Below, one piece after another: positions 7,810 through 49,419 of a stretch of 64,000 bases of DNA. Origin of the DNA: Deltaproteobacteria bacterium (lineage in GTDB: Bacteria; Desulfobacterota_D; UBA1144; Nemesobacterales; JAJCZQ01); assembly GCA_029262335.1 (NCBI GenBank), contig JAJCZQ010000017.1:4033-68032 (forward strand), written 5' to 3'. The position numbers were made by a program, and so were the translations under genes. The notes beneath the pieces were generated by a model that saw only the letters and a program-made list of their open reading frames with translations, had not been told where the DNA came from and did no database searches. Each line of letters opens with the position of its first letter. Position 1 is the first letter of the stretch.

Positions 7810-7845
7810 ATTAAATTGTTTTTAATTTACTAAACTAGGCCTGGT

Positions 7846-9012: not shown

Positions 9013-9040
9013 ATTAGTGATCTAAGTTTATTTTTTGCTA

Positions 9041-10039: not shown

Positions 10040-10130
10040 AAATATCCTCCTAAAAATCAATCCGGTAAAAATAATCTTATTTTTTATATTGTTCAATAGC
10101 ACACATTATATATAAGGTGAATATTGTACA

Positions 10131-13754: not shown

Positions 13755-13783
13755 TACTTGTTGAATGAAGCTTTCAGGCTTTG

Positions 13784-14179: not shown

Positions 14180-14254
14180 TTAAGAGATCCTCCGTGTAAG
14201 AAATAACTAGTTTTATAAGCTAGCATAGTAAAGTTTAATGACAAAGAAATTTTT

Positions 14255-14562
14255 AAATTTTAGTATATTTTTGTTTAGCCGTGATTTTTGGTTCTTTGTA
14301 TCTAGACAAAGAACATAGAGAAATAAACAAACTTACTTATTAGCAATACTTCATTTTCTTTATCTTGATATAAAACTACGGGAAAGCAATAGTACAACTA
14401 CTGAGCTGTATTTAAATTTTTATTTAGAAGAAAGTATTGTACCGAGATAGTTGAAGCTAAACCTAAATATAGATTTAAACTAGCTTCAATGCATGTTCGG
14501 TTTTCTTACCATAGCTATATTCATTGCAGGCCGTATAAAAAATTTAAAAAATTAAATTCCTC
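14255..14562. repeat. Family-A interspersed structured repeat, copy A2 (divergent internal segment)
   Basis: Shares the 5' module (TTTAGTATATTTTTGTTTAGCC...GGTTCTTTGTatctagACAAAGAAC...CTTCATTTTCTTTATCTTGATATAAA) and the 3' end (CATTGCAGGCCGTATAAAAAATT) with A1 and A3. Confidence 0.7.
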
Positions 14563-14623
14563 TCACTGTGAAGGGCAAAGAATTTAGATATCTTTCATAG
14601 TTATTGTATAGTAATCCCTTAAT

Positions 14624-15583
14624 ATGCCTGAAAATATATGCTGTAAAGATTCATCCTCAGATGCGAAGGAACACCTGTACGGTACAGTACCAAAGGTTGA
14701 CCACTGGCTACTCCTGGAATACCCGGAGCACTGGGAAAAAGATTCCCTTGATAAAAGCACAATCCCTGAGGAAGTAAAAGAGGAACTAAATAAGTGCCTT
14801 AAATCATTGGGTAATTCCCGTCTCCAGCTTATACAAAGAGAGCTTCATAAAGAAGGGAAGATAAACTTTTACTATATTAATTCCACGGAGTTTGAACCTA
14901 AAACCTACCATTTTCAGTTCGATAAATACGAAGAACTGCTCGAGCTGGATTTAATAAACCTGATAGAAAATGGCGAAATAAATAACTCGGAAACAGATGA
15001 AAAGATAGCAATTGTATGCACCCATGGGGCGCATGACACGTGCTGCGGTAAATACGGTGTACCGGTATATAATGAGTTAACTAAAGTTGAAGGCATATCG
15101 GCCTGGAGGACCACACATGTTGGTTCGCACAGATTTTCAGCAAACGTCGTAATGCTGCCCGAGGGTATCTATTACGGAAGGGTAAGCCCCGAAAATGTTG
15201 CTGAAATCGCGTGTATTCATTTAAAGGGAGAGATCGCTCTTAATAACTTCAGGGGAAGGTGCTGTTTCAGGCAGGCTGCACAGGTCTCTGACTATTTTCT
15301 CAGAAAACAGCTTGGTGAAAACGGGCTTCAGGTAAATGGAATTTATGAAATAGAGTGGGTTTATGAAAAAGATAGGTACGAATATACTTCTGTTGAATTT
15401 CTGGTCGATAAATTAAATCTTGTTTACAGTGTAAATTCAATGGTCCTAAACAGTGCCATAAAGGTCAGGACTAGCTGTACTGACAGTGAACCTGTATCAA
15501 TGCCCCAGTTTTATTTCTACAGTATTGTCCCCTACACACCTGAGCCGGCAGAAGAGCAGAATGGCCTTGAAAAAAATAGTTAG
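14624..15583 (+). CDS. Sucrase/ferredoxin-like (Suc_Fer-like) family protein
   Basis: CTHGAHDTCCGKYG cysteine motif typical of the thioredoxin-like sucraseferredoxin family. Confidence 0.5.
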   Translation: MPENICCKDSSSDAKEHLYGTVPKVDHWLLLEYPEHWEKDSLDKSTIPEEVKEELNKCLKSLGNSRLQLIQRELHKEGKINFYYINSTEFEPKTYHFQFDKYEELLELDLINLIENGEINNSETDEKIAIVCTHGAHDTCCGKYGVPVYNELTKVEGISAWRTTHVGSHRFSANVVMLPEGIYYGRVSPENVAEIACIHLKGEIALNNFRGRCCFRQAAQVSDYFLRKQLGENGLQVNGIYEIEWVYEKDRYEYTSVEFLVDKLNLVYSVNSMVLNSAIKVRTSCTDSEPVSMPQFYFYSIVPYTPEPAEEQNGLEKNS

Positions 15584-16509
15584 ATATCAAGGAAGTCCAG
15601 AATTCTTCTTGAAAGGGTCTCTGATTTTTCATCATCTGTCATAATTGTATCAGTAACAAACGTGATAATCTCAAGGGAGTTTATAGTTTCGACTTCTCCG
15701 CCGTCTGAGTCATCAAGGACCATTACATCAAGAAAATCTTTGTAGAGTTTAGCAATTTCGGATGACGATGCTTCAAGCCCGAGCCCTCTCATTAACTTGT
15801 CTGCAGGGCCTTTGAGCGGTTTGCCCCCGATAAGCGGACTGATAGCTATTACCTTTGCCGGGCTGTTTACAACGGCTTCCCTTATTCCTTTTACTTCGAG
15901 TATAGGGCCGATGCTGATAATCGGATTGCTTGGGCAGATAATGATAAGGTCAGAATTTGCAAGAGCGTTCAGGACTCCGGGGGATGGTTTTGCATCTTCA
16001 ATACCCCTAAGATTAAGGCCCGTTACCTCCGGCTCCATTCGGCGCTTGATATAGTACTCCTGGAAATGCATTTCGCCTTCATTAGTTTCTATCCATGTTT
16101 CAACTGACTGGTCTGACATTGGCAGTATATTTAAATTACCAAGGCCAAAGGAGGAAGCTGTCAGGTTTGTAATCTCGGTCTTTGATTTGCCGTTAAGAGC
16201 TAGCTCTTTTTTAAAGACCTGGGTTGCAAAATCCCTGTCACCAAGGCCAAACCATGTCTCAATGCCAAAAGATGACAGTGAGTTCAGGACATTCAGGCTG
16301 TCGCCCTTAAGTCCCCAGCCTTTATCAGTATCAATGTTGCCGGAAAGCCTGTATATAATGGTATCAATATCCGGTGAGATATTAAAACCATACAGTTCAA
16401 TGTCATCGGCAGTATTGATAATTAAAGTAAGTTCCTCGTTCGGAACCAGTTTTGTAAGCCCATTTAAAAACTTGGCAGCACCTACTCCGCCGCCCAAAGC
16501 TGTGATCAT
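15580..16509 (-). CDS. CofD/YvcK-family protein (2-phospho-L-lactate transferase-like, UPF0052)
   Basis: N-terminal ITALGGGVGAAKFLNGL glycine-rich motif. Length and pattern match the CofD family. Confidence 0.7.
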   Translation of the reverse strand: MITALGGGVGAAKFLNGLTKLVPNEELTLIINTADDIELYGFNISPDIDTIIYRLSGNIDTDKGWGLKGDSLNVLNSLSSFGIETWFGLGDRDFATQVFKKELALNGKSKTEITNLTASSFGLGNLNILPMSDQSVETWIETNEGEMHFQEYYIKRRMEPEVTGLNLRGIEDAKPSPGVLNALANSDLIIICPSNPIISIGPILEVKGIREAVVNSPAKVIAISPLIGGKPLKGPADKLMRGLGLEASSSEIAKLYKDFLDVMVLDDSDGGEVETINSLEIITFVTDTIMTDDEKSETLSRRILDFLDI

Positions 16510-30105: not shown

Positions 30106-30603
30106 ATGTTTAATGTATTTATAGGTCTGGGCTCTAACCTTGGCAACAGGACCGAGAACTGCCTTGCAGCTATCGAGCACCTGTCGGACTTTACTATTAT
30201 CAAGTCTGTCTCGTCCTTTTACGAGACAGAACCTGTGGGTAATGAAGACCAGCCGAGGTTTATTAATGCCGTTGCAAAGGTTAATACACTTCTTTCTCCC
30301 CTGAATCTTCTAAACTCTCTTAAGACTGTTGAAAGCCAGCTTGGGCGCGAAAGGAATGAGAAATGGGGCCCAAGGACCATAGACCTCGATATTCTGATAT
30401 ATGAAGATTTTCAGCTGGACTCCCAGGAACTTACAATCCCCCACAAGGAACTTGTAACAAGAAGGTTTATGCTTGAACCGTTATGCGAAATAGAGCCGTG
30501 GCTTGAGCACCCAACTCACAATAAGACCATGAGTACAATCCTCAAAGAGCTTCAGGATGACCGCGAAGTTGTGATTGTCGGTAATTTTTACAAAAACAAT
30601 TAA
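30106..30603 (+). CDS. folK: 2-amino-4-hydroxy-6-hydroxymethyldihydropteridine pyrophosphokinase (HPPK)
   Basis: IGLGSNLGN, ETEPVG, PRTIDLDIL motifs. Confidence 0.9.
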   Translation: MFNVFIGLGSNLGNRTENCLAAIEHLSDFTIIKSVSSFYETEPVGNEDQPRFINAVAKVNTLLSPLNLLNSLKTVESQLGRERNEKWGPRTIDLDILIYEDFQLDSQELTIPHKELVTRRFMLEPLCEIEPWLEHPTHNKTMSTILKELQDDREVVIVGNFYKNN

Positions 30604-30714
30604 CAGTAATCCACAGCTTGTCCACAGCTTTTTAACTAATTATTCACCTGTTAATCCACAATTAATTGCATAATTTTTCTAAAGATGTGCATTCCTTAAT
30701 CAAAACGGCTATTT

Positions 30715-30730
30715 TGGCAGGCAAATTGCA
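30715..30730 (+). promoter_or_regulatory. Sigma-54 (RpoN) -24/-12 promoter element
   Basis: TGGCAG-gcaaa-TTGCA matches the TGGCAC-N5-TTGCA consensus with one mismatch. Lies about 43 nt upstream of the ATG at 30773. Confidence 0.55.
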
Positions 30731-30772
30731 TAGATATTTTAAGTATAGATAAGTTTTTTTAAGGAGAAATGG

Positions 30773-33733
30773 ATGAACCTGATACAATTACCAATACGAA
30801 ATTTATTACTAACTTTATTTACGCTAATCTTCTTTTTAACACTATTTACAATTAACTCTAACTCACAAAGCTGTAATGAAATGAATATACCAATGTGTAC
30901 TGACACCCAGATTGAAAATGATTGTAGTGGGTGTAAAAGTGCAGATCAACAGTACTGCTGTACGGATACAATGGGTTGTAACACTGATTTGACTACAATC
31001 TGTAATCCTCCATGTAATGAAAGTAACATTTGTCAGATGCCTGAAGAATGCACAGGAACCAGCATCCCCGATTGTGCACAGGACTTAACTGATTGTAGTG
31101 TATGTGGTGAAAATGATTTTTGTTGCCCATCCTCAACTGGCGGCACTGCTGCCTGTGGTACAACATTCGATGGTTTATGTAATGGCAATACCTGTACTGA
31201 CCAAAATATATGTAAATATGTGCCGCTTCCCCCTGTACTTGAAAGAGAATTTACATTTATAAATAATTGTAGTGAAACAGTCTGGGTAGGAGCTCTAACC
31301 AACCAGTTTGAAGGCGGTTTCGAACTCACCGGATCCTGCACTATGGATTCTGACTGCATGAATGCCTGTCCTACAATTACAGGAATAAGCAACTGTTCTT
31401 CCTCCTGTTTAAACGGATCATGCACGGTTGAATTTACCGGTAATATTAATACAGCTACTGCAGACAGTATATCAGGAAGGTTCTGGCCAATGACCGGATG
31501 CAGTTTTAATGGTTCTCAGGAATGCGAGGGAACTGACAGGTGCTGTGATACGGGGAGCTGTACTATATCCGGCGGAGGTTTTGGACTTCAGTGCAACAGC
31601 TCCGGGGATTCACCTAACACTGTCGCAGAGTTTACACTTACTTCAGGGGCCAACAATGATTTTTATGATATTAGTTTAATAGACGGATATAACGTGCCGG
31701 TTGAGATGAAGCCTGCCGGAACTGCCGCAGACGCACCGACTGGTTTTGACACTTCTTACTGGTGTGCTAACCCGGGAGGTGTTGAATCAACAATAATTCC
31801 GGAGGTCTGTAACTGGGACACTACTTTCGGTACTGACTGTGCCGGTAACCCTGATTTCAGGACGGTAGGATCACTTCAGACCTGTACTGAGGATTCAGAC
31901 TGTGGTTCAGGAACGTGCAATGTGAGTTCCGGTGTATGCGAATGTAAGGATGATACTGACTGTAATCAAACAGGGAATATATGCGGGGTTCCTGACCCGG
32001 GCTTTACGGGTTTTAAAGCCTGCGGGACTCAGACAGGTTGTACAACGGCAAAAGATATATGCGGCTTGTATTTCGGACAGGGTGAAAAAGGTGATACCTG
32101 CGGACAGGATGAACTTTGCTCAAGTGGTACCTGCCTTGCGCCCAACACTCCGAAAACCTGCATGATGGACAGTGACTGCAATGCTGTTTGTATGAACGGT
32201 ACATGTGAAAATAATAGCAATATAAGCTGTACGCTAGATAGTGAATGCACAGCCAATTGTGTAGATGGGCAATGCTGGAAACCATGCACATTGACAAGTG
32301 ATTGTAATGGTGAGGAAGTATGTGCCGAGGGAGTTTGCCAGTGTATACCTAATGTCTGCAACTCTATGGGTATGTGTACTAATGACGGAGATTCCTGTAC
32401 AACAACTGCAGATTGTACACAGACCTGTGGTGGTTTTTGTACCGAGGGGCCTGCAGATTTTCTTGATTGCAACGAACTTGTAACGACTAATAAACAGGTT
32501 GCATGCTCTGTAGATACGGATTGTCCTGCATTAGTAGGCCTTCCTGCATGTACAACGAATTCCGACTGTCCGGAGAACACTACATGTGAAGATTTTGGTG
32601 CGATGCCGGCTCCGGGACAACCCGAAATTGCAAAAGTATGCAGGCTCACATGTGATACAAATACAGGTTTCTGTTCAGGTCCCACATGTACTGACAACAG
32701 TGACTGTACAGGGATGAGTAACGGTGTAAGCCTGAGCGGAACATTTATGCAGTGTGATACGAGCACCAGTCCAGGCAGCTGCGTTGCAACAAATACAAGC
32801 CTGTATGAAGGTGCCGGTTTAACAGGACAGTCCTGCTATATAAATTATTATGGGGGTTTTGCACCGTCATTATCCTGTAATGGATGCCCGACAGCTTGTG
32901 ATGATCCTCCATGTAATCCGGCACAGGCAGCTAATTCCAAATGGCCTTCACCTGCTACCAATGAGAGTTGTAAAAATACTAATTCGGACTGGGTAAGTGT
33001 TGCGGAACCATTAGTTGAAGGATTCAAGGAAGCATGCCCTTCAGCTTACAGCTTCCCGTTTGACGACCCAACAAGTACTTTCCAGTGTACAAATGATACG
33101 CAGACAAACAGCATGGGGTATGAAATTACTTTTTGTCCCGCGGGAACACCAATACCGCCACCGCCTCCACCTCCGGTAATTGATGATGATACAACGGAAC
33201 CTCCAATAAAAATTAACCCGGGTAGTAACGGGCCGTTTGTTTCGATCGAATTTGATCCCGAACTTGATGGGGGAGGCCAGATTTTTGTAGGCCTTCCGCC
33301 GGGAGTCCTTGCGGAGTTTGCACAGCTGAACCCCGTTGTAGGAGACTGTGAAATAGTAAGCCAGACTGCAAGGGTAACGGACCCAGATGTAATATGCAGG
33401 GTAGATGATTTTCCCGAAAACCTTGATATGCTCATAGAGTTCTGCAAAGAAGCAGATCAGCAGGGTGTTGTTCAGGCCGCTGTTGAGGTACTGAGTGACG
33501 GAATACCCGAAGAAGAATTCAGTAATTTCCTCGACATACTTCTTGATGAGCTGGATTTATGCGCTAGTAATGATGACGATGCAGGTGATGATGGAAGCGG
33601 TGACATTACAACTGGAGATGATACTGGTACCGGTTGTTCGCTGACTCCGGCAGGCAGTGAATCAAACGCCTTGCCTCTACTGCTGTTAATCCCGGCATTT
33701 ATAATTATCAGAAGATTAAGAAATAAAAAGTAG
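30773..33733 (+). CDS. Secreted cysteine-rich thaumatin (PR-5)-like domain protein with C-terminal sorting-signal-like tail
   Basis: Thaumatin blocks: FTFINNCSETVWVGA, GRFWPMTGCSF...CDTGSC...VAEFTL...DFYDISLIDGYNVPVEM, FKEACPSAYSFPFDDPTSTFQC...YEITFCP. Many CTxDSDC modules inserted within domain II. PPPPPPPP linker. C-terminal GCSLTPAG + hydrophobic stretch + RRLRNKK. Confidence 0.8.
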   Translation: MNLIQLPIRNLLLTLFTLIFFLTLFTINSNSQSCNEMNIPMCTDTQIENDCSGCKSADQQYCCTDTMGCNTDLTTICNPPCNESNICQMPEECTGTSIPDCAQDLTDCSVCGENDFCCPSSTGGTAACGTTFDGLCNGNTCTDQNICKYVPLPPVLEREFTFINNCSETVWVGALTNQFEGGFELTGSCTMDSDCMNACPTITGISNCSSSCLNGSCTVEFTGNINTATADSISGRFWPMTGCSFNGSQECEGTDRCCDTGSCTISGGGFGLQCNSSGDSPNTVAEFTLTSGANNDFYDISLIDGYNVPVEMKPAGTAADAPTGFDTSYWCANPGGVESTIIPEVCNWDTTFGTDCAGNPDFRTVGSLQTCTEDSDCGSGTCNVSSGVCECKDDTDCNQTGNICGVPDPGFTGFKACGTQTGCTTAKDICGLYFGQGEKGDTCGQDELCSSGTCLAPNTPKTCMMDSDCNAVCMNGTCENNSNISCTLDSECTANCVDGQCWKPCTLTSDCNGEEVCAEGVCQCIPNVCNSMGMCTNDGDSCTTTADCTQTCGGFCTEGPADFLDCNELVTTNKQVACSVDTDCPALVGLPACTTNSDCPENTTCEDFGAMPAPGQPEIAKVCRLTCDTNTGFCSGPTCTDNSDCTGMSNGVSLSGTFMQCDTSTSPGSCVATNTSLYEGAGLTGQSCYINYYGGFAPSLSCNGCPTACDDPPCNPAQAANSKWPSPATNESCKNTNSDWVSVAEPLVEGFKEACPSAYSFPFDDPTSTFQCTNDTQTNSMGYEITFCPAGTPIPPPPPPPVIDDDTTEPPIKINPGSNGPFVSIEFDPELDGGGQIFVGLPPGVLAEFAQLNPVVGDCEIVSQTARVTDPDVICRVDDFPENLDMLIEFCKEADQQGVVQAAVEVLSDGIPEEEFSNFLDILLDELDLCASNDDDAGDDGSGDITTGDDTGTGCSLTPAGSESNALPLLLLIPAFIIIRRLRNKK

Positions 33734-33735
33734 AA

Positions 33736-33778
33736 TAAAAAAAGGGAGCAATGATTATAGTTCATTGCTCCTTTTTGA
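33736..33778 (+). terminator. Family-B hairpin terminator, copy 5
   Basis: AAAAAAAGGGAGCAATG-attatagtt-CATTGCTCCTTTTT. Confidence 0.75.
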
Positions 33779-33795: not shown

Positions 33796-34092
33796 TTAAC
33801 TCTTATCGCAGTCTGAAAGTTTTTGTGCCACGAGTGAATTTGAAGCGTCTGTAGCAACAAATGGTTTGTAGAAGCATTCTATTTCAGAGTTGTTATTGCT
33901 GAGTTTCTGTACAGCTAATGAATTAGAAGCATCTGTGGCAACAAATGCGTTTGATTCTATACTGGAATTTTCATCCAGCATCTGTACTGCAAGAGAGTTT
34001 GAAGCATCGGTAGCCACGAAAGGTGCTGCATATGAAAATACCGGCATTCCTAGAACAGCAATTAAAGCTAAAATCTTAATATATTTAAACAT
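33796..34092 (-). CDS. Small secreted tandem-repeat protein (3x FVATDASNSLAVQKLS)
   Basis: GGAGG SD, signal peptide MFKYIKILALIAVLGMPVFSYA, then three imperfect roughly 25-aa repeats. Confidence 0.6.
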   Translation of the reverse strand: MFKYIKILALIAVLGMPVFSYAAPFVATDASNSLAVQMLDENSSIESNAFVATDASNSLAVQKLSNNNSEIECFYKPFVATDASNSLVAQKLSDCDKS

Positions 34093-34354
34093 TTTAAAGC
34101 CTCCTGAGTTTTTAGTTACAGTATTATAGTTGCATGTGCAACTATAAGGATTCATAATACTTCAAATTATTTTCAATACCGGAAAATATTCATTAAAAGG
34201 TCTTCAACTCAACTGCTAACTATTTCATATTACTTATTAGAATAAAAACCTGTTATTTCAGAACTTAATTCCCACTAAAATATAAAAATCAGTAGAAACC
34301 GTTAATCCAATAGGCAGACTATGATTTATTGATATCTGTTTTGGAGGACTCAGT

Positions 34355-35458
34355 ATGGCCAGCATTATTAACGATTTTAAAATTGTTGTTTTTATCAGTT
34401 TTATATTAATCGCAATTACATTTTTTAACTGCGGGGGCGATAGTATAGATTCATCCACAAACAGCAGTTCACCGGAACTCAGCAGAATTGACGGACGTGT
34501 TACTGAGGTGCTGGCATTAAAAATAGATGAAAAACAGTCACATTTTGCTGAAATTAAAAATACATTGAGTTTTACCGTGACAGCTACCGCCCAGGGGTCC
34601 TTAGTGGATGGAATTTTAGTTATGGCTATTGGGAATGATTCAAACGGTGAAAAGCTTTTGGACCAGGATACAACAGCCTTTGATGGCAGTTTCAGCCTGT
34701 TTGTCCCGGCCGGGGAAGTTGCTCTGCAGTTTGAAGTTGATAACGAAGTATATGAAAAAGTATTGCAGGTCCCTGAGGAAACCACTGTTGAAATACTGGT
34801 CAGCATAGATAAAGAAGATAAAGTAAACCCGGTTGAAATATCCGGTCCGGATGAAGTTGGCGAAGAGGAAAATACGGAAGATACTATTGATGAAACGGAA
34901 GATAATAGTGAAGACATGAATAATGAAAATGATGTTCCTGAGCCGGAAGATACTAATGACATGCAGGATGAAGATGAGCAGACAGGTAATGATGACGATG
35001 ACAATCAGGGTGATTTTGATCCACCATCTTCGGGAGAAGGGAATATAACTTCGGCAGAATTAGTCTCTTCGGTAAACTCAAGACGGGCCCAGGGGGCAAA
35101 TTGCGGATCCGAAGGGTCATTCGGGCCACAGGGGCCGCTTGGAATAAGTAACTCTCTTGGTGAAGCGGCACTCAGGCATTCAGTAGATATGTCAGAAAAC
35201 AATTTTTTTGAACACCGGGGTTCTGACGGATCAAGCCCTATAGACAGAATGAGGGATGCGGGGTTTGCCGGAAACGGCTGGGGTGAGAATATCTCACGTG
35301 CAAGCTATGAAAGATCAGCCGAGGAAGTAGTAGCAGGCTGGATGACAAGTGACGGGCACTGTTCAAACATTATGACCCCGGGTTTTAATGTCCTGGGTTC
35401 TGCAAAAGCAGCTAACAGCAACTGGGAAAACTGGACACTTAATCTCGGTACTGAGTAA
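34355..35458 (+). CDS. CAP (SCP/PR-1-like, YkwD-type) domain lipoprotein with acidic linker
   Basis: Lipobox FFNCGG. Long D/E-rich linker. C-terminal CAP region (ELVSSVNSRRAQGANCGSEG...EHRGSDGSSPIDRMRDAGF...GENI...AGWMTSDGHCSNIM). Confidence 0.75.
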   Translation: MASIINDFKIVVFISFILIAITFFNCGGDSIDSSTNSSSPELSRIDGRVTEVLALKIDEKQSHFAEIKNTLSFTVTATAQGSLVDGILVMAIGNDSNGEKLLDQDTTAFDGSFSLFVPAGEVALQFEVDNEVYEKVLQVPEETTVEILVSIDKEDKVNPVEISGPDEVGEEENTEDTIDETEDNSEDMNNENDVPEPEDTNDMQDEDEQTGNDDDDNQGDFDPPSSGEGNITSAELVSSVNSRRAQGANCGSEGSFGPQGPLGISNSLGEAALRHSVDMSENNFFEHRGSDGSSPIDRMRDAGFAGNGWGENISRASYERSAEEVVAGWMTSDGHCSNIMTPGFNVLGSAKAANSNWENWTLNLGTE

Positions 35459-35566: not shown

Positions 35567-36556
35567 ATGAGAGTATCATCTTTTTTAATAGCAGTTTCAC
35601 TTTGTTTAAGTTTTACAGTAATTTCAATTCAGGAAAGTTCTTCCCAGGCACTACCTATTGCAGAGTCTGACGCTGCAGGGCCACAGTTGATTGGTTTTTT
35701 TGACCTTAGGGAGAGAGAATCTTTCATGCAGTTAACTAATACCGATAGTGCAGTACAAACAGTACATATTCAGCTTTTCAATGTTAATGACAACTGCAAC
35801 GAAAACAATTTCTTTGATGACTATACCGCTAACGATACACATATATATAATCTGAGAGACATTCAGACTAACGATGGAAACCCACCGGGAGTAGTACTCC
35901 CAGCTGATGCTTATGGAATATTTGTTGCAACTTATGTGAATAAACCAAATGTTATGCAGCCCCCTCTTGCATTAGTAGGAAACCTAAGAGTTATTGACAA
36001 CAGCGGCTACGAATACAGGACAAATCTGCTTAGCTCCCTTGCCTCTGAAATTCAATCAATTTTTGACCCGGTAACCTTCAACTTTAATTCTGAAGCCGGT
36101 GTAACACTTTCAGATGTGATAGGTATTCCACTTGACGATTTAGGTGAATTCGAACTACCTGCTGAAGTGTTTGCAGCTGACGTTACAAATATATGGTTAA
36201 GCTTTGATGTAAATATATTGGATAATATTGAAAATATATTTTCATGCAGGGATATAACATTTGCCTGTGTCAACGATCAGAATCCTTTATTAGAAGAATT
36301 GTTGGCTGCATCACAAACCAGTGTTGCGAGCTTTGAATACGGTATCAACAATGCAATACCTCACAGCAAGGGTGGAGAACTTCTTTGTCCTGGTAATACA
36401 ATATCCGAAGGGGTTGTTACACTAACAAATATTGACGTTGGATTTGAATCACAACCTACTTACTTTATTTTTGTAGGTCTTAACAATGGAAACGGCAGGG
36501 GTAGTCTGGATGTAATCTGGAACGATCAGATACCTGATATGATGGGTGGTGGTTAA
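35567..36556 (+). CDS. Secreted protein, novel paralogous family, member 4
   Basis: FFDLRERESFMQLTN, NDNCNENNFFD, NDTHIYNLRDIQTNDGNPPGVVLP, GYEYRTN, FSCRDITFACVNDQNPLLEE, FEYGINNAIPHSKGGELLCPGN, GLNNGNGRGS. Confidence 0.85.
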   Translation: MRVSSFLIAVSLCLSFTVISIQESSSQALPIAESDAAGPQLIGFFDLRERESFMQLTNTDSAVQTVHIQLFNVNDNCNENNFFDDYTANDTHIYNLRDIQTNDGNPPGVVLPADAYGIFVATYVNKPNVMQPPLALVGNLRVIDNSGYEYRTNLLSSLASEIQSIFDPVTFNFNSEAGVTLSDVIGIPLDDLGEFELPAEVFAADVTNIWLSFDVNILDNIENIFSCRDITFACVNDQNPLLEELLAASQTSVASFEYGINNAIPHSKGGELLCPGNTISEGVVTLTNIDVGFESQPTYFIFVGLNNGNGRGSLDVIWNDQIPDMMGGG

Positions 36557-37561: not shown

Positions 37562-38008
37562 ATGAGCAGAATAAATATCCCGCCATTTTATCTTCTGATT
37601 TCAATAATTGCATTATTTGTCCTTAACTATTTAATACCAATTATGGCCCTGTTTTATCCACCATTTAATTATTTTGGGGTAGTTATTATTTTTGTTGGGC
37701 TCGCGGTGATACTTTGGCATGCCGACTATTTTAAAAGACACAATACTCCTATTAAACCATTCGAGCCTTCCACGTTTCTAATCAAAGAGGGGTTGTATAA
37801 ATATAGCCGAAATCCAATTTACCTGTGTATGGGGATAATACTGTTTGGGGGTGCAATGCTGCTCGGGACTCTTTCCCCTTTTGTAGTTGTCCCTGTGTTT
37901 ATTGTTGTAATTGAAAGAAAGTTTATTGTTAAGGAAGAGGGGTTTCTTGAAAATATATTCGGAAATGATTACCTGGAATATAAAAAATCTGTAAGAAGGT
38001 GGCTATAA
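37562..38008 (+). CDS. Isoprenylcysteine carboxyl methyltransferase (ICMT/PEMT)-family membrane protein
   Basis: Multi-TM. YSRNPIYLCMGIILFG and E..F..EE..L motif typical of ICMT-like methyltransferases. Confidence 0.6.
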   Translation: MSRINIPPFYLLISIIALFVLNYLIPIMALFYPPFNYFGVVIIFVGLAVILWHADYFKRHNTPIKPFEPSTFLIKEGLYKYSRNPIYLCMGIILFGGAMLLGTLSPFVVVPVFIVVIERKFIVKEEGFLENIFGNDYLEYKKSVRRWL

Positions 38009-38012
38009 GAGA

Positions 38013-38591
38013 ATGAAAAATAATGCCGGTTTATACTATGTTATTCTTGCTTTATGGCTGGTTGCCGCAGCAGCAGTGGGGCATCTGGGCCTTTTGAATA
38101 AAGTAAGGCCGCCTCTGATAATACCGGCACTGGTACTGCTGCTTGTTGTATTTTATCTCACTGCACCATCTTTCAGAATTTGGCTAAATTCAATCTCTCT
38201 AAATGCTCTGGTATCAATACACCTCATTCGTTTTATAGGATTTTATTTTTTATATCTATACGGAAAAGGACTGCTTCCATATGAATTCGCGGTATACGGA
38301 GGCTGGGGAGATATCGTAGTAGCAGCTCTTGCACTGATTATATTAATTTTAAGTGCCGAGGGAATAATTAAAAATTATAAATATTTTAATAACTGGAACC
38401 TTATAGGCCTGGTAGATATTCTTTTTGTGGTCTCAACTGCAGCAAGGCTGTATAAAGCAGACCCCGCGTCTATGTCAGAGCTTACGCATCTGCCCCTAAG
38501 CCTGCTCCCGACTTTTATTGTGCCTTTAATTATATTTTCACACCTTCTAATATATTTCCGCTTAAGAAAGAAAAGGTTATCTGTGGTTTAG
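38013..38591 (+). CDS. Polytopic membrane protein (hypothetical)
   Basis: About 6 TM segments. No recognised motif. Confidence 0.4.
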   Translation: MKNNAGLYYVILALWLVAAAAVGHLGLLNKVRPPLIIPALVLLLVVFYLTAPSFRIWLNSISLNALVSIHLIRFIGFYFLYLYGKGLLPYEFAVYGGWGDIVVAALALIILILSAEGIIKNYKYFNNWNLIGLVDILFVVSTAARLYKADPASMSELTHLPLSLLPTFIVPLIIFSHLLIYFRLRKKRLSVV

Positions 38592-41576: not shown

Positions 41577-44500
41577 ATGGAATTGAAAAAATCCCGTCTA
41601 ATACCACTAATATTTATTATTGTCCTTGTTGTTGCCTATCTTTTCATTGCAAAAATTTATGTGCCCGGACTTGTGAAGAGCGAAATTGCAAAATTCGGTG
41701 AAGAAAGGGGCGTGGCCCTTAGTGTCGGGGGAGCTTCTTTTGGTATATTCAGGGGACTTGTTTTAAGTGATACAAAGCTTGGGGATTCAATATCTGTAGA
41801 CACGATAGAACTGCGGCCATCTTTTCTCGAATTTCTTTCATCCGGGGAACTATTAATAGAAAGTATATTGGTTGACAGGCCCCTGGTCACGGTTGATGAC
41901 AATCTGCCTGAAACTATTATCAGGATTCAAAAAAGTGATGATAAAGAGCCGGGTAGAAATATTGAAATAAGAAATATTGATATAGATGACCTTGTCATTA
42001 AAGCGGGTGGGTCCGAGTACAGTCTTAGCGAGCTTGATATCGAGATGCCGGTGCAGGGGGATGAGGAAGACAGTCTGCAACTTCGCGGAAGACTTGAAAA
42101 TGATTCCTTAAGGCAGGAAGTAAGTTTTATTTCGGATATAGAATTCAGGGATAATAAAAATCTTAAAGTCGACGTTGCATTTACTGATTTAAAAAAGGGT
42201 GATATCACAGGTTTCCTTCGCTTTCCCCATGATCTTTCCATATATATATCAGCAATAGTAGATTACAGTGAGGGGTTAGATTCGAGGGGTAAACTCACAA
42301 TCATTAACAGCCTTGATAAAACCGAAGAAGGTGTAGTTGTCTTTGACCTCTCACATGAAGAAGAAAGTAAAAACCTTGCGATCAATTCTTTAAATGGCAA
42401 TATCGGAGAAGTCCTTAGCCTCGACATGAAAGGGCTGGCGGGAAACCTCCCGGATAACGGCATAGTAAAATTAAACGGAAATCTTAATGTGCCGGAGGCT
42501 TCAGGGCTTGAACCCTGGCTGCCGTTTTTAGACAGTATCAAAATTTCAGGGTCTCTAAACACAGAAAATATATATGTAAAAAAAGAGGGAGATATTACAA
42601 CTGTAATTGCCGGGATAGAATCCGATAATTTTTTACTGGATTTTGGTGAAAACAATAAAATAGCGGCCCGGAACCTAAGCACTAAAGACGGCCTGGAATT
42701 TATCTATACAAATGAGAATGATAAAACCCGTTACGGACTAAAACTCCGGGAAACGGAATACAGTGATTTTATTTATACCGATTACGAATCCTCCGCCGGA
42801 ACTATTAAAAGCCTGGATTTCAATTTCAAAGAGGGTATTTGGGACGTAAAACTCACATCCGGCGGCCCCGGTGTTCTTAACGAATCCCTTGGGGTAATGC
42901 TTAGTGACTACCTGCTTAACCTTGTAATATCGAGTAATGAAGAACTTGAGATCTCCGGAGATATTAAAGGTGTAGACGGAAGTTACGGTGTTTTTAGTCT
43001 CTTAACATTTTTTACAAATTTTAAATATTTAAACAACAAGATTGAGTTTAACAGTGCCAGTGCGGGAATTGAAACATACGGGGATTTTTTTGTGGACTCG
43101 GGGTCACTTTCATTTCCTCCAGTGAGCGGTGGGGAATACCTTCTTGAAATTAAAGATACAAAATTTATATATACAGACCCTGGTATAAATGCCGAAAATA
43201 TTAAGGGGCTTTTTACGATAAAAGCTGCCGGCGAAGGAAGTACAGCTATAGAAGGAAGGATAGTTGCCGAAAATGCCAACGTTTACACCAGTGTTATAAA
43301 GAACCTGAATTTTGATTATTACTCTCTTGGGGACGACTACAAGATAAGCAGTATTACAGGGGGATTTCTGGGCGGCAACCTCGGGGGTAGTCTTGGATTT
43401 AAAACACTTGAGGAGAGTATCTCATTTGAAACTGCCATAAAACTTTCAGGAGTAAAGAACGGCAGCCTCAATGCTGAAGGTGTTAATTTTGATTCAAAAG
43501 GCCATTTTTCTTCCGGGCATTTTAAAGATACAAAGGGAGTCCTTAAGTTTAATGACCTCTTTCTTGGCCAGGGATATACGGAAGTTGACTTTGACGGTGA
43601 GCTGGATTTTACCGTTGACCCTGAAACCATATCGATAGTTAAGGGGTTTATATCTAATGACGAAGGAAAAAGGTTTGAATTTACGGGAGGCCTTAACAAC
43701 TACGCGGAAGAAAAGAGGGATTTTAAACTATTAGCGCCTGAGATCCCGCTGGACTTTCTTATAGATGTTTTTTCCAGCTACCTTCCAGACAGCACTTTTG
43801 TACTTGATGTCGAAGGGGTAGTGTCGGTAGATTTTGATGCATTAAATATTTTAAGCGACGATGAAATATGGAACGGATTAATAAAGATAAAAGATTCAAC
43901 AGTTTCGGCGTTTATCAACAATGCAGATGTTCTTTTGGAAGATGTCGAAGGTTCAATAACAATAAGGGAGATAGACGGAGTTAAAAACAGGCTCGTGGCA
44001 CTGCTGGGTAAAGACCTTACAATTGACAGGTCGGTTTATAAGAAATACCTGGCTGAAGTTAAACAGGAAGCAGACACGGAAACCAGGGACTATCTTAAAA
44101 TCGGCAAACTGCAGTATGGATTTTTTGAGATGAACAACATTGAAGCAAAATTTGAAATGGATAACGACGAATTAAACCTCATCTATCTGAGGTCAGATGT
44201 TTATAACGGCAACATATTTGCGAGCGGGATATTTAATTACGGTGATTCAAAGGAGAACTACAATATAAACCTTTTGTTTTCCAGGCTCAGTCTTAAAAGC
44301 ATATCCGACAGCCTTCCCTCAATGGAGGGCTATATTACGGGCGTTATAGACGGACTGATCTGGTTTTCGGTCGGAAATGGTTATACAACTATTAACGGGC
44401 CTTTTTCATTCTGGGCCAGGGACGGCAAAGGTGAGAAGAGGACAATAGGCCGGGCACTCCTGGAAAAAATCGGAGCAAAGGGCAGATTTTTTACAGGCTC

Positions 44501-44720
44501 TTCAAGGCGGTACGATAAAGGTGAGATTGCGGGATATATAAAAGACGGATTTATAACATTTAAAAAACTTATTATTTCGAATAGAATACTTGGTTATACT
44601 GACTTAAAAATCAAGGTGGACGACAGACAAAACTCGATTACCGTAAAACACCTGTTTTCGGTAATAAGAGAGCTTGCAAGAAGGGCAAGCAGGGGAGATG
44701 TAGAGATTGATTTTCAGTAG
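41577..44720 (+). CDS. YdbH-like AsmA-family giant protein
   Basis: 1047 aa. N-terminal TM anchor, extended beta-rich body. Followed by a YnbE/YdbL-like gene. Confidence 0.7.
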   Translation: MELKKSRLIPLIFIIVLVVAYLFIAKIYVPGLVKSEIAKFGEERGVALSVGGASFGIFRGLVLSDTKLGDSISVDTIELRPSFLEFLSSGELLIESILVDRPLVTVDDNLPETIIRIQKSDDKEPGRNIEIRNIDIDDLVIKAGGSEYSLSELDIEMPVQGDEEDSLQLRGRLENDSLRQEVSFISDIEFRDNKNLKVDVAFTDLKKGDITGFLRFPHDLSIYISAIVDYSEGLDSRGKLTIINSLDKTEEGVVVFDLSHEEESKNLAINSLNGNIGEVLSLDMKGLAGNLPDNGIVKLNGNLNVPEASGLEPWLPFLDSIKISGSLNTENIYVKKEGDITTVIAGIESDNFLLDFGENNKIAARNLSTKDGLEFIYTNENDKTRYGLKLRETEYSDFIYTDYESSAGTIKSLDFNFKEGIWDVKLTSGGPGVLNESLGVMLSDYLLNLVISSNEELEISGDIKGVDGSYGVFSLLTFFTNFKYLNNKIEFNSASAGIETYGDFFVDSGSLSFPPVSGGEYLLEIKDTKFIYTDPGINAENIKGLFTIKAAGEGSTAIEGRIVAENANVYTSVIKNLNFDYYSLGDDYKISSITGGFLGGNLGGSLGFKTLEESISFETAIKLSGVKNGSLNAEGVNFDSKGHFSSGHFKDTKGVLKFNDLFLGQGYTEVDFDGELDFTVDPETISIVKGFISNDEGKRFEFTGGLNNYAEEKRDFKLLAPEIPLDFLIDVFSSYLPDSTFVLDVEGVVSVDFDALNILSDDEIWNGLIKIKDSTVSAFINNADVLLEDVEGSITIREIDGVKNRLVALLGKDLTIDRSVYKKYLAEVKQEADTETRDYLKIGKLQYGFFEMNNIEAKFEMDNDELNLIYLRSDVYNGNIFASGIFNYGDSKENYNINLLFSRLSLKSISDSLPSMEGYITGVIDGLIWFSVGNGYTTINGPFSFWARDGKGEKRTIGRALLEKIGAKGRFFTGSSRRYDKGEIAGYIKDGFITFKKLIISNRILGYTDLKIKVDDRQNSITVKHLFSVIRELARRASRGDVEIDFQ

Positions 44721-47424: not shown

Positions 47425-47688
47425 AATTTTGAGCAACAGTTCAATTATAATTAATTTCTTAAACAATTAAAATAATTGTTTACACCCCTTGTTTTATCAT
47501 TAACCTGTATTCCCTATTACTAATTATTTTTATCCGGAAAACGAGAGTGGAATTTTATCTGCTCTTGCTTAAATACGTTAGTGATTGAGGGATCCTGACA
47601 AATAACAACTAAAGAACGTTCATTAGAAATGGATTTTCCTTTTCTATTAAGAGGGATGGAGGAAATACCTGTATGGAGGTTTTACACG

Positions 47689-49419
47689 ATGAACCATTAT
47701 TTTAGTAAGTTTTTGGCAGCATTAATAATTTTTTCTGTATTATTTATTAGCAGCAGTACTGAGATATTTGCTCAGCAGAATGACTGGGCACGGGACGGTG
47801 AGGGCCGCCGGGATTCAAGTCGACGGATTAATCATGATGATGACCGTCAGAAGAAAGGCGATAAGAGGGATAAGCGCAACAGAGTCCGTAGGGATGAATT
47901 CCGCACTATCGATGGCAGCAGTAACAACCTCGACAACACCGAGATGGGTGCAATATTTACTCCTCTATTAAGGATCGTAAACCCCGCCTATTCAGATGGT
48001 ATTTCAGAACTTGCCGGGGAAGACAGGCTGAGTCCAAGGGAAATAAGTAATATTGTAAACAGTCAGGACGACGTGATATTTAACGAGCTAGGCACTACCG
48101 ATTACCTTTGGCAGTGGGGCCAGTTCCTGGACCATGACATTGACCTTACTGAAATTGCAATCCCCGAGGAAGAAGCAAATATAGAAGTACCTATTGGTGA
48201 TATTTTCTTTGACCCGGAAAGTACAGGTGAAATGATAATTCCTTTCACAAGGTCACTATACGACAGTTCTACAGGAACTGATACCGACAACCCCCGCCAG
48301 CAGTTAAACGAGATTACGGGCTGGATTGATGCTTCAAATGTTTACGGCTCAGAAGAAGAAAGGGCCACAGCATTAAGAACTAATGATGGCACCGGAAAAC
48401 TCAAAACTACTGATGGAAACCTGATGCCGTTTAATCTGGATGGTTTTCCAAATGCAGGTGGGGCTGGTACTGACCTGTTTCTTGCAGGTGATGTAAGGGC
48501 GAACGAACAGGTAGGTCTTACCGCTATGCATACACTTTTTGTAAGGGAACACAACCGCCAGGCGGAAAGAATCGCAGAAGACAATCCGGAACTTTCTGGT
48601 GACCAGATATATGAAAAAGCAAGGGAGATAGTTGCAGCTCAGATGCAGTACATTACCTACAATGAATTTCTACCTGCTCTTCTTGGAGATAGTGCATTAA
48701 AAAGATACAGGCGCTATGACCCTGATATTGATGCCAGTATTGCAAACAGCTTTTCTGCTGCTGCATACAGGTTTGGACACAGTGCTCTAAACCCTTTCCT
48801 TCTACGTGTTGATGCAGAAGGGGTAATGATTGATGCAGGGCATCTGCCGCTCAGGAATGCTTTCTTAGCCCCTAATGAGATTGTGGCAAATGGTATAGAG
48901 CCCATACTAAGGGGGCTCAGCCAGCAGCTTCACCAGAAAATAGATCCTTATGTAATTGATGACGTAAGAAATTTTTTATTCGGTCACCCGGGAAGCGGAG
49001 GGTTTGACCTTGCTTCACTCAATATCCAGAGGGGAAGGGACCACGGCCTGGCATCTTATAACGATACAAGAGAGGCACTTGGACTTGACCGCATAAATTC
49101 CTTTTCAGAAATAAGTTCAGATACCGAAATACAAATCCGGCTTGAAGAAGCATACGGTTCTGTTGAGGATATTGACCTCTGGGTAGGAGGGCTTTCCGAA
49201 GATGCTCTTCAGGGTTCACACCTCGGTGAGACATTCACTACAATAATTACAATCCAGTTTGAAGGTTTAAGAGACGGCGACAGATTCTGGTTTGAGCGCA
49301 GTCTCGGTGAAAGGCAGGCAGACAGGATTAAAAGAACAAGACTCTCTGATATCATTATAAGAAATACCGATATTGAAGAAGGCGAGATTCCAAGAGATGT
49401 ATTCAGAATAGCTAAATAG
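47689..49419 (+). CDS. Animal-type heme peroxidase (peroxidase-cyclooxygenase superfamily), secreted
   Basis: GGAGG SD with ATG 47689 and a signal peptide. WGQFLDHDIDLT (distal His), RDHGLASYN and FWFE motifs. Confidence 0.85.
   Translation: MNHYFSKFLAALIIFSVLFISSSTEIFAQQNDWARDGEGRRDSSRRINHDDDRQKKGDKRDKRNRVRRDEFRTIDGSSNNLDNTEMGAIFTPLLRIVNPAYSDGISELAGEDRLSPREISNIVNSQDDVIFNELGTTDYLWQWGQFLDHDIDLTEIAIPEEEANIEVPIGDIFFDPESTGEMIIPFTRSLYDSSTGTDTDNPRQQLNEITGWIDASNVYGSEEERATALRTNDGTGKLKTTDGNLMPFNLDGFPNAGGAGTDLFLAGDVRANEQVGLTAMHTLFVREHNRQAERIAEDNPELSGDQIYEKAREIVAAQMQYITYNEFLPALLGDSALKRYRRYDPDIDASIANSFSAAAYRFGHSALNPFLLRVDAEGVMIDAGHLPLRNAFLAPNEIVANGIEPILRGLSQQLHQKIDPYVIDDVRNFLFGHPGSGGFDLASLNIQRGRDHGLASYNDTREALGLDRINSFSEISSDTEIQIRLEEAYGSVEDIDLWVGGLSEDALQGSHLGETFTTIITIQFEGLRDGDRFWFERSLGERQADRIKRTRLSDIIIRNTDIEEGEIPRDVFRIAK

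Follow-up and report, generated by a model that had tools for sequence, protein, structure and literature searches.

The window analysed here, a stretch of 64,000 nucleotides, carries on the plus strand at positions 30773–33733 an open reading frame whose translation is a secreted protein of 986 amino acids with 95 Cys residues, exactly the frame and length given by an initial annotation. Nine orthologues were found (57–100% identity), and the synteny around the gene is conserved at locus L001. The host is a Dadabacteria-like bacterium; its SecA is 67% identical to that of Candidatus Dadabacteria CSP1-2, and some homologues bearing the same C-terminal tail carry the name Candidatus Dadabacteria. 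Next to the thaumatin-like gene lies one for a CAP/PR-1-family lipoprotein; at a distance of 14 kb there is also a gene for an animal-type haem peroxidase.

30773–33733, plus strand: whole gene, putative thaumatin-like surface protein (open reading frame; orthologues; synteny kept in L001)
30603–30630, plus strand: CACAG-repeat element CAGTAATCCACAGCTTGTCCACAGC, candidate UAS (alignment of the upstream regions of three orthologous loci)
30715–30730, plus strand: sigma-54 type promoter motif TGGCAGG-N4-TTGCA (exact consensus match with GG-N10-GC spacing)
30761–30766, plus strand: ribosome-binding site AAGGAG (read directly; invariant in the three-locus alignment)
33740–33776, no strand assigned: bidirectional intrinsic terminator with a 15-bp stem (terminator scan)

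A sigma-54 promoter motif is present upstream of the gene, 43 nt before the start codon. This consensus has two matches in the window against 0.33 expected, and the same element occupies the equivalent position in L001 (9948–9964), L085 (7116–7132) and L082 (approximately 887–903). The CACAG-repeat element, located approximately 85–110 bp upstream of the -24/-12 promoter, forms an invariant block in the three-locus alignment while the intergenic flanks diverge, and may represent a site for an enhancer-binding protein. The ribosome-binding site sits 6 nt before the ATG, and the terminator is common to the thaumatin-like gene and a convergent small ORF.

Thaumatin fold and expanded domain II

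The exported and folded parts of the protein are encoded as follows.

30773–30868, plus strand: Sec-type signal peptide, residues 1–32 (read from the sequence; kept in orthologues)
30872–31213, plus strand: two tandem 10-Cys modules, residues 34–87 and 93–147 (Cys positions and repeat register)
31235–31732, plus strand: N-terminal part of the thaumatin fold, residues 155–320 (Pfam, phmmer, modelled strands, invariant columns)
31328–31438, plus strand: first insertion, residues 186–222, within the N-terminal sheet (motif, model, start of the osmotin alignment)
31733–33016, plus strand: expanded domain II region, residues 321–748 (54 Cys, eight strict CxxDSDC motifs)
33017–33142, plus strand: C-terminal part of the thaumatin fold, residues 749–790, FKEACPSAYSFPFDDPTSTFQC...ITFCP (phmmer; partial LegT match)

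The signal peptide consists of a basic n-region (R9), a hydrophobic core at residues 11–27 and then SNS-Q, a layout that suggests the cleavage site. The Cys-rich region that had been placed N-terminal to the thaumatin domain is present and resolves into two 10-Cys repeats, each module being about 57 amino acids long; a third copy occurs in two orthologues (P0004 and P0006), and the modules gave no match in Pfam or NCBIfam.

Residues ~155–790 form a complete thaumatin fold that contains an excursion and retains the cleft residues. All of the thaumatin blocks quoted in the initial annotation were found, with Cys plentiful at the blocks expected for the family, and the PF00314 model matched in two stretches at 41.1 bits (gathering cut-off 27.4; E 2.1e-10). 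Phmmer searches against thaumatin-like proteins in the PDB gave E values down to 4.6e-18 and aligned query residues 223–320 with osmotin 32–118 and residues 749–791 with osmotin 169–206. An AF2 model of residues 150–800 (pLDDT 89.8, pTM 0.89), in which the strands of residues 155–320 are of high confidence, showed the three-domain thaumatin fold with its beta-sandwich core and disulfide-rich domains II and III, the two halves reassembling around a large Cys-rich excursion. When this model was used in Foldseek, the best 17 matches were all thaumatin-like proteins and the next-best folds were GH64 beta-1,3-glucanases. The acidic REDDD cleft is made up of R236, E286, D299 and D304 from the N-terminal part and D765 from the C-terminal part, which align to osmotin R44, E84, D97, D102 and D185; the nine orthologues have all five unchanged, and in the wider set they vary little or not at all. 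For the N-terminal repeats and the C-terminal domain, no confident structure model was obtained.

The first insertion, of 37 residues, carries the first CTMDSDC module (residue 189); residues 192–226 of this region were modelled as a helix and a beta-hairpin, and the osmotin alignment starts at residue 223, after the insertion. The expanded region keeps domain II elements at both of its ends with the disulfide-rich excursion between them. The initial annotation had described an insertion of about 500 residues with some 20 CxxDSDC modules standing in place of domain II. The extent, the number and the placement all required correction: 428 residues (321–748) separate the thaumatin blocks, the Cys array is an excursion inside domain II, and the strict motif C-x2-[DNT]-[ST]-[DE]-C occurs nine times in the protein (eight in the insertion and one at residue 189), which is still far above chance (mean 0.06, maximum 2, in 2000 shuffles).

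Canonical thaumatin-like proteins such as Jun a 3 (7p20), osmotin (4l2j) and that of Amycolatopsis rifamycinica (7p22) comprise approximately 200–235 residues with 16 Cys, whereas the body described here has about 636 residues and 70 Cys. The extra residues come from domain II (about 395) and from the first sheet (37), and the protein possesses in addition the N-terminal Cys modules, a pre-tail domain and a membrane-sorting tail. An expanded domain II was observed in 45 of the 59 relatives in which both anchor motifs are present, and sequence comparison places the architecture at the extreme end of a graded series of domain II expansions, those of most relatives being shorter (117–355 residues). 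The giant insertion is seen again in MEE8339520.1 (P0010), which NCBI names "thaumatin family protein" and which comes from a Xanthomonadales MAG; 436 residues separate its blocks, and the part of the query that aligns with it (29% of its length) is 32% identical. Like long, unannotated metagenomic relatives of 400–600 amino acids, P0010 has the domain II scaffold of the query, including ICGVP..G..ACG..GCTTAK..CG and SCY..CNGC..W. Neither the N-terminal Cys modules nor the sorting tail is present in P0010, whose C-terminal domains are different ones. The architecture, which had been thought undescribed, is thus not singular but one end of a continuum, and its novelty for a bacterium was overstated, as bacterial thaumatin-like proteins are known (LegT, 7p22 and the Xanthomonadales MAG protein).

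The closest curated bacterial family is LegT (NF045527), a Dot/Icm effector of Legionella (PMC4256840). Query residues 686–792 correspond to model positions 653–764 of 776, which is only the shared, bacterial-type C-terminal third of the thaumatin domain, and the protein is not a LegT equivalog because the match scored 50.9 bits against a cut-off of 1200. Instead of binding or cutting a glycan, the thaumatin body could nevertheless act on a eukaryotic membrane or receptor, as a "eukaryote-like protein" with which a symbiont combats fungi or protists or interacts with its host. A role of this kind has been proposed for LegT and for plant osmotin, although we regard it here as rather improbable. 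Plant PR-5 proteins are antifungal, and this, together with the kinship to an effector family, the neighbouring CAP/PR-1-family lipoprotein, the haem peroxidase 14 kb off and the reported presence of Dadabacteria in sponge microbiomes, speaks for such a role. However, LegT is a translocated effector, while the protein here shows a Sec signal, together with a tail for surface anchoring, and no effector translocation signal; its glucan-cleft residues are strictly conserved; and CAP-domain and peroxidase-cyclooxygenase proteins are common among bacteria, whether symbionts or not.

Pre-tail domain and C-terminal tail

Four further features follow the thaumatin body.

33143–33178, plus strand: proline-rich linker, residues 791–802, GTPIPPPPPPPV (read from the sequence)
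33203–33565, plus strand: pre-tail domain, residues 811–931 (representative search; alignment A7)
33566–33631, plus strand: Asp/Gly-rich spacer, residues 932–953 (alignment A7)
33632–33730, plus strand: putative tripartite sorting signal, residues 954–986 (alignments A5 and A7; shared tails; weak Cys-type CTERM matches)

The initial annotation had reported a proline linker, an acidic domain and a C-terminal tail, and all three were found as described. The linker differs in length among orthologues. The pre-tail domain, of about 125 amino acids, is acidic, has four conserved Cys and gave no Pfam match; in the representative search, query residues 805–983 matched proteins without a thaumatin domain, and alignment A7 of 14 pre-tail/tail modules revealed invariant columns. 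The spacer is variable in sequence and length in A7 yet always acidic and glycine-rich.

The tail is composed of G954-C955-S-L-T-P-A-G, a hydrophobic helix LPLLLLIPAFIII containing P974, and a basic RRLRNKK end. The G-C and the Arg are invariant in alignments A5 and A7, and the helix Pro (P974) is invariant or nearly so; all 11 tails and all 14 modules have the G-C, with a hydrophobic helix and Arg/Lys after it. Directly before the helix stands an L-P, I-P or F-P pair. C955 is the unpaired 95th Cys because the other 94 fall in regions with even counts, and it is predicted to be the site of lipidation. Every full-length orthologue keeps the tail, even P0009, whose upstream domain differs. The tail is also portable, as judged by sequence comparison: the tail alone recurs on the unrelated beta-helix proteins of L083 and L084 and on 30 of 120 homologues of these (regular-expression search, with about 10 more variants lacking the G recognized by eye), and the combination of tail and pre-tail domain is found on proteins of the choice-of-anchor Q, YVTN-propeller and EGF/TSP3 kinds. 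The proposal that the protein ends in a sorting signal is thereby supported: the signal is tripartite, it is kept in orthologues, and many unrelated proteins have it as well.

None of the current curated models recognizes this tail. On the tail of the 986-residue protein, MYXO-CTERM (TIGR03901) scored 17.2–17.4 bits against a cut-off of 20 (E 0.004–0.005), and it matched three of 11 related tails. JDVT-CTERM (NF033191) matched eight of the 11 weakly (best E 5.5e-4), reaching with tails alone, among the scores listed, at best 11.9 and 10.8 bits in two scans and on the partner P0050 17.8 bits, against a cut-off of 27, and Synerg-CTERM (TIGR04564) matched two of 11 at 6.6 bits (cut-off 22.5; best E 1.1). 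The sole exceptions to these Cys-type models were weak, sub-threshold Heimdall-CTERM and PTPA-CTERM matches on the partner P0043. All matches being sub-threshold and nearly all of Cys type, the tail is therefore an unmodelled variant. None of the 11 tails matched the GlyGly-CTERM or PEP-CTERM models at E ≤ 10, a result to be read with the caveat that the speed filters of HMMER drop most matches above about E 0.1, so that very weak similarity to these two may escape. Among the sorting types suggested initially, the MYXO-CTERM (Cys) type thus gained support, and the rhombosortase (GlyGly-CTERM) and exosortase (PEP-CTERM) types went unmatched.

The tail resembles the Cys-type CTERM signals in having an invariant-Cys motif, a hydrophobic helix and an Arg-rich end on many unrelated secreted proteins, and in one subset it differs from them in being preceded by a conserved domain of about 125 amino acids. 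In MYXO-CTERM tails the transmembrane helix is free of Pro and of charged residues, and these tails belong to Myxococcota/Bradymonadales with the myxosortases MrtX, MrtC or MrtP (Haft, 2023). The helix here contains P974 and measures, in this protein, only about 14–15 residues, which is likewise unlike MYXO-CTERM, and the lineage is Dadabacteria-like. JDVT-CTERM has a nearly invariant DP before its Leu-rich helix, which is lacking here, and its cognate CPBP protease MrtJ is encoded within a few kb of its clients; none was found at the loci examined. Synerg-CTERM, on the other hand, has a Pro inside its Leu-rich helix, as does the present tail. A conserved domain that travels with, and directly precedes, a sorting signal is also known from archaeal PGF-pre-PGF and PGF-CTERM, although the sequences are unrelated and PGF-CTERM is of the archaeosortase class, has no Cys and occurs in another domain of life.

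A search for the sorting enzyme revealed no CPBP-motif ORF in the window, L001 or L082–L085, no PF02517 protein among the called genes of L001, L088, L089 and L090, and, around two other genes that carry the tail, no gene for a CPBP, exosortase or rhomboid protein over a distance of 10 kb; of the multi-pass membrane proteins encoded in the window, none is a sorting-enzyme candidate. These results, and CTERM scores that all fall below their cut-offs, would agree with the tail being a plain C-terminal membrane anchor, that is, an inner-membrane tether facing the periplasm with no cleavage, lipidation or sorting enzyme. We consider this distinctly improbable. Choice-of-anchor Q, a name given by NCBI to domains with different dedicated sorting signals in different lineages, is found among the tail's partners; a plain anchor needs neither an invariant G-C 15–20 residues before the helix, nor an invariant helix Pro, nor a conserved pre-tail domain; and the hydrophobic stretch, only about 14–15 residues, is short for a stable span. 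Absence of an enzyme near the client genes is moreover to be expected, because MYXO-CTERM systems rely on one housekeeping gene for the enzyme, unlinked to the clients (Haft, 2023).

It is also unlikely, in our view, that the tail is a signal for an enzyme of another class (exosortase- or archaeosortase-like, a rhombosortase or an unknown one) that reads L-I-P-A/G in the helix while the Cys serves otherwise. The helix Pro is as conserved as the Cys, the glycine run before the Cys (GGGGC) recalls GlyGly-CTERM, and the Heimdall-/PTPA-CTERM matches of P0043 extend over LPAIVGFG...RRKK in a protein whose N-terminal region resembles rhombotarget A. Yet Synerg-CTERM too has an invariant Pro inside its Leu-rich helix, the repeated matches are to Cys-type models with GlyGly-CTERM and PEP-CTERM silent, and no exosortase or rhomboid gene was found near any client examined.

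Proposed function and significance

The explanation that we favour, with somewhat better than even confidence, is a lipid-anchored surface thaumatin-like (PR-5/CAZy GH152-type) protein with a processed sorting tail that acts as a beta-glucan binder or glucanase; in it we infer the lipidation, cleavage, enzyme, surface location, ligand and regulation. Transcription would proceed from the sigma-54 promoter through an enhancer-binding activator, and the product would be exported by Sec and fold in the periplasm with about 47 disulfides. Residues ~155–790 would form one rigid body with the acidic cleft intact, from which some 430 extra residues would emerge, out of domain II and slightly out of the first sheet, as a compact, disulfide-knotted superstructure built partly from C-x2-D-S-D-C modules. 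The two 10-Cys modules, the proline linker and the pre-tail domain may serve as a stalk. The last 33 residues would act as a Cys-containing tripartite signal, Cys955 being lipid-modified by analogy with MYXO-CTERM, for which the mechanism has been established experimentally (PMC11980579) and discussed (Haft, 2023). The helix and the basic tail would then be cut off by an intramembrane protease whose gene lies elsewhere in the genome, most likely a CPBP enzyme of the myxosortase kind. A type II secretion system would probably carry the protein, with its lipid anchor, to the outer face of the outer membrane. In that position the thaumatin cleft would bind beta-1,3-linked glucans, or some comparable glycan, and might also cleave them, while the outgrowth would reshape or extend the binding surface.

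Judged from the cleft residues, beta-glucan binding or GH152-type glucanase activity is the likely function. An intact REDDD motif is found in many thaumatin-like proteins that bind glucan but do not hydrolyse it. The motif and the glucanase activity of GH152 have been described (bioRxiv 10.1101/2024.06.03.597214). A more far-reaching possibility, which we hold only tentatively, is a Dadabacteria-wide sorting system (the pre-tail domain plus the G-C ... L-I-P ... R-R tail) whose enzyme is none of the described myxosortases but a new CPBP subfamily, or another class, that reads the helix Pro, combined with a thaumatin body with about 35 disulfides that represents a structurally new class among surface GH152 enzymes or lectins and uses domain II as a large evolvable binding platform.

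Thaumatin-like proteins have been studied almost only as defence proteins and allergens of about 200 residues from plants, fungi and animals. In bacteria, domain II proves to be a hot spot, expanded stepwise up to about 400 extra residues with the glucan cleft kept, and the graded expansions offer a natural series for asking what role domain II plays in ligand choice. Cys-containing signals processed by Rce1-like proteases were established only recently, and few lineages are so far known to have them. This system would be extended by a related signal, not yet modelled, that dozens of surface proteins of the uncultured phylum Dadabacteria carry, and the annotation of Dadabacteria proteins now called hypothetical would improve. 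The tail would mark the surface proteome of the lineage, the part of the cell that meets substrates or hosts.

An enlarged thaumatin fold

The observation made on the 986-aa protein in the initial annotation is real and mostly accurate. It had described a thaumatin domain split in the sequence and proposed structure prediction to test whether the halves reassemble into a single fold, which was borne out at the levels of sequence and model. The sole Pfam match of the protein, from a scan proposed there for PF00314, is Thaumatin, which scores 41.1 bits (gathering score 27.4). Alignment with PDB sequences paired residues 223–320 with osmotin 32–118 and residues 749–791 with osmotin 169–206, and located the acidic REDDD cleft at R236, E286, D299, D304 and D765. 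These residues are invariant in the orthologues, and invariant or nearly so in a wider set that includes plant proteins. A full-length AlphaFold model made from a 15-sequence alignment (pLDDT 41.5) was set aside. The model of residues 150–800, for which an alignment of 150 sequences was used, gave a pLDDT of 89.8 and a pTM of 0.89, with the halves joined into a thaumatin fold, and the best 17 matches obtained with it in Foldseek were thaumatin-like proteins without exception. The confidence of this model and the nature of its top matches show that the two sequence halves do reassemble; as modelled, the whole canonical thaumatin fold is present, domain II included. The high pTM says that the approximately 430 additional residues and the thaumatin core form one rigid body rather than a chain of separate beads.

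Of the 95 Cys residues of the protein, the N-terminal region accounts for 20, the first thaumatin part for 13, residues 321–748 for 54, the last thaumatin part for three, the C-terminal domain for four and the tail for one. Outside the tail the counts are even (with the thaumatin parts taken as 13 + 3), and the tail holds the lone 95th Cys. As a self-BLAST of the 986-aa protein turned up no pairs of internal repeats, motif and Cys spacing served to define the repeats. Nine copies of the strict motif C-x2-[DNT]-[ST]-[DE]-C were found (residues 189, 371, 391, 463, 486, 505, 578, 593 and 639), against an average of 0.06 and never more than 2 in shuffles, and the C-x5-C units at 443 and 542 are degenerate copies of it; the "about 20" modules claimed originally was therefore too high. 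The motif at residue 189 is carried by a 37-residue insertion in the first sheet (residues 186–222), which was modelled as a helix plus hairpin.

The rarity of bacterial thaumatins had been overstated. Searched exhaustively with HMMER, 1.84 billion representatives yielded 1181 relatives at E <= 1e-3, of which 250 had E <= 1e-10. The spacing between two anchors, DFYDIS and CPxAYSFPxDD, was determined for the 59 sequences in which both could be located, drawn from the relatives in the representative search, earlier homologues and the query. The canonical value of 67–97 residues was observed in 14 of the 59 and a spacing of 117–480 in the other 45, the expanded spacings clustering near 200, 225–310, 345 and 410–480; that of the 986-aa protein is 453. 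In P0010, an NCBI "thaumatin family protein" from a Xanthomonadales MAG, the spacing is 436 and the insertion scaffold is common to both proteins, but the N-terminal modules and the tail are absent. The only NCBIfam match of the full protein is a partial one to the Legionella effector LegT, in which a thaumatin motif has been noted (PMC4256840). Bacterial thaumatin-like proteins are thus already known, as evidenced by LegT, the named Xanthomonadales protein and the graded relatives, and the spacing series places the giant domain II, as judged from sequence, at the far end of a continuum. No paper on expanded-domain-II bacterial thaumatins or their continuum came up in literature searches.

Locus, host and promoter

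The position and length first reported for the ORF were exact, and the ribosome-binding site AAGGAG precedes it. The features associated with the gene, and a second promoter match, are:

30603-30630, CACAG-repeat block upstream of the sigma-54 element
30715-30730, perfect sigma-54 element TGGCAGG-N4-TTGCA, 43 nt 5' of the start codon
30773..33733 (+), ORF encoding the 986 residues
33740-33776, bidirectional terminator with a 15-bp stem after the thaumatin gene, from a terminator scan
63336-63351 (+), another exact match to the sigma-54 consensus, TGGCATTAATATTGCA, where the window's last, truncated ORF starts

The gene sits among ordinary bacterial genes. The upstream neighbours are SMC, SecA, MoxR ATPase, an amino-acid permease, pterin dehydratase and FolK, and those downstream are a CAP-domain lipoprotein, FolD, a PEMT/ICMT-like methyltransferase and a GT2 glycosyltransferase. 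This gene order is repeated on L001, a 418-kb contig on which the orthologue is 77% identical. Nine orthologues were found in public data (57–100% identity), and a profile search of the genome contigs with the orthologue alignment revealed no relative. The host is, on the SecA comparison, a Dadabacteria-like bacterium, because the SecA of the window shares 67% identity with that of Candidatus Dadabacteria CSP1-2 and no more than 55% with those of the other genomes returned by the scan. Eukaryotic contamination was rejected on account of the ribosome-binding site, sigma-54 promoter and intrinsic terminator of the thaumatin gene, its bacterial flanking genes (SecA, FolK, FolD) and a synteny kept on several contigs. 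Recent horizontal acquisition was also rejected, the GC content of the gene being barely above that of its neighbours and the locus being syntenic across orthologues of 66–100% identity.

The sigma-54 consensus has two matches in the window against 0.33 expected. Comparison of the upstream regions of three orthologous loci, whose encoded proteins are 100%, 77% and 66% identical, revealed that the sigma-54 element, the CACAG block and the ribosome-binding site are kept amid intervening sequence that drifts, a pattern that points to a probable sigma-54-dependent, activator-controlled expression of the thaumatin gene.

Other genes of the window were also inspected:

33796-34155 (-), small convergent ORF without a family match: a signal peptide, then three copies of FVATDASNSL(A/V)(V/A)Q(K/M)L
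34355-35458 (+), 367-aa putative lipoprotein: an acidic linker, then a CAP / PR-1-type domain
41577-44720 (+), 1047-aa ORF without a Pfam or NCBIfam match
47629-49419 (+), 596-aa protein matching animal haem peroxidase over its full length (PF03098, E 1.3e-159)

The bidirectional terminator is common to the convergent ORF and the thaumatin gene, and an ORF of similar size occupies the matching position in L001. Beyond it, the lipoprotein gene (Pfam CAP E 1.4e-12; weak matches to DalA and YkwD) is the next + strand gene after the thaumatin gene, so that genes of the PR-5 and PR-1 families lie close together, in an order kept in L001. The 1047-aa ORF has a positional counterpart of 1045 aa in L001. 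Animal haem peroxidase is a family better known from eukaryotes.

The Cys-type C-terminal tail

The last 33 residues of the protein consist of G954-C955-SLTPAGSESNA, then LPLLLLIPAFIII, then RRLRNKK. The proposal that this tail resembles a sorting signal held up, as it is present in every full-length orthologue, kept in homologues and found again on unrelated proteins. P0009 and a shorter thaumatin protein, P0011, keep the tail and have TSP3-like repeats in place of the upstream acidic domain. Nine tails (alignment A3) varied too much to be used in a metagenome scan; a five-tail subset was used, and identified two beta-helix proteins of ~600 residues without a thaumatin domain, both terminating in GGGGC(T/V)L..GSNN.SLPLFLLIPA.I..RR. 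In a homologue search with one of them, a simple regex detected the same tail type in 30 of the 120 homologues listed, and about 10 more among the same 120 were seen by eye to carry a G-less variant. The named tail-bearing members are Candidatus Dadabacteria.

Independently, the representative search localized query residues 805–983 (acidic domain plus tail) to the C-terminus of proteins with unrelated N-terminal parts, namely choice-of-anchor Q beta-helices, YVTN beta-propellers, EGF/TSP3 arrays and a domain of unknown type. Among the columns invariant in an alignment of 14 modules are four Cys or Pro positions in the acidic domain, the G-C pair and the helix Pro; the Arg after the helix is nearly invariant (at least 90% of rows). 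A profile search with the C-terminal module (A7) is uninformative on its abundance, since it returned only four short proteins and missed known full-length members.

When 11 tails alone were compared with NCBIfam at E <= 10, JDVT-CTERM was matched by eight (best E 5.5e-4), MYXO-CTERM by three (17.4 bits against a cut-off of 20) and Synerg-CTERM by two; two myxosortase-client families were the only others matched, GlyGly-CTERM and PEP-CTERM never were, and none of the 11 reached any NCBIfam CTERM cut-off. JDVT-CTERM is characterized by a DP motif, Synerg-CTERM by a Pro within a Leu-rich helix, and MYXO-CTERM by a helix without Pro and its confinement to Myxococcota and Bradymonadales (Haft, bioRxiv 10.1101/2023.06.07.544157). 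The present tail combines an invariant Cys with a helix Pro, in another phylum; hence we class it as an unmodelled variant of the Cys-type family and not a member of any named one.

Genes for sigma-54 enhancer-binding activators are located within 2 kb of two other Cys-type-tail genes (in L088 at 7784-9160 (-) and in L090 at 13782-15731 (+)), which echoes the promoter of the thaumatin gene and may be a coincidence.

The window also encodes five paralogous secreted proteins of ~330 aa, 50–71% identical, without a Pfam or NCBIfam match:

7846-8847 (-), paralogue
9041-10102 (-), paralogue
10185-11252 (-), paralogue
35567-36556 (+), paralogue
49638-50645 (+), paralogue

All have an invariant GLNNGNGRGS.D ~10–20 residues before the C-terminus. 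The same ending occurs in P0214 and P0261, choice-of-anchor Q beta-helix proteins not encoded in the window, which suggests that the lineage may have another, so far undescribed domain for C-terminal sorting or secretion. Judged by eye, the paralogues have an N-terminal domain (FDLRDRESF.QLTN...NDTH.YNL) similar to the N-terminal regions of two carriers of the Cys-type tail, P0050 and P0097.

Proposed sorting route and cell-surface function

The CPBP protease MrtX cannot cleave MYXO-CTERM without the Cys, and surface display depends on that cleavage (PMC11980579); lipidation and T2SS-dependent export are predicted (PMC11980579; Haft 2023). By analogy, the 986-aa protein would take a MYXO-CTERM-like route, with C955 as the lipid site. 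The sorting enzyme is the weak point of this proposed route. A CPBP motif regex identified no ORF in the window or five related loci, and Pfam and NCBIfam scans of the window proteins, together with a screen of multi-pass membrane ORFs, found no sorting enzyme; the multi-pass proteins were a permease, a Ca/Na antiporter, a PEMT/ICMT-like methyltransferase and small unknowns. Extending the window edges gained nothing relevant to the enzyme, and two other client genes have no CPBP, exosortase or rhomboid gene closer than 10 kb. Myxosortases in described systems are single unlinked genes (Haft 2023), and absence of the enzyme near its clients is consequently weak evidence.

Other genes considered here are:

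12626-13754 (-), adjacent pair: a peptidase C39-like cysteine protease (184 aa) and a TPR protein (194 aa)
37562-38008 (+), PEMT/ICMT-family membrane methyltransferase with weak matches to protein-S-isoprenylcysteine O-methyltransferase
38013-38591 (+), 192-aa multi-pass membrane protein without a family match, after the methyltransferase

The methyltransferase and the 192-aa protein are encoded 4 kb downstream of the thaumatin gene, as a pair that is syntenic in L001. Because eukaryotic ICMT acts right after Rce1 (CPBP) cleavage of the lipidated Cys, the methyltransferase gene is, by analogy, a lead as a candidate for the Cys-tail pathway. Peptidase C39-like proteins are not known as a class of sorting enzyme for CTERM signals.

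Both the thaumatin outgrowth and the sorting tail are variations on already known themes. The intact REDDD cleft, the fold kinship of the 150–800 model with GH64 laminaripentaose-producing glucanases and the GH152 precedent for beta-glucanase activity (bioRxiv 10.1101/2024.06.03.597214) support a function in which the cleft would bind, and possibly hydrolyse, beta-1,3-type glucans at the cell surface.
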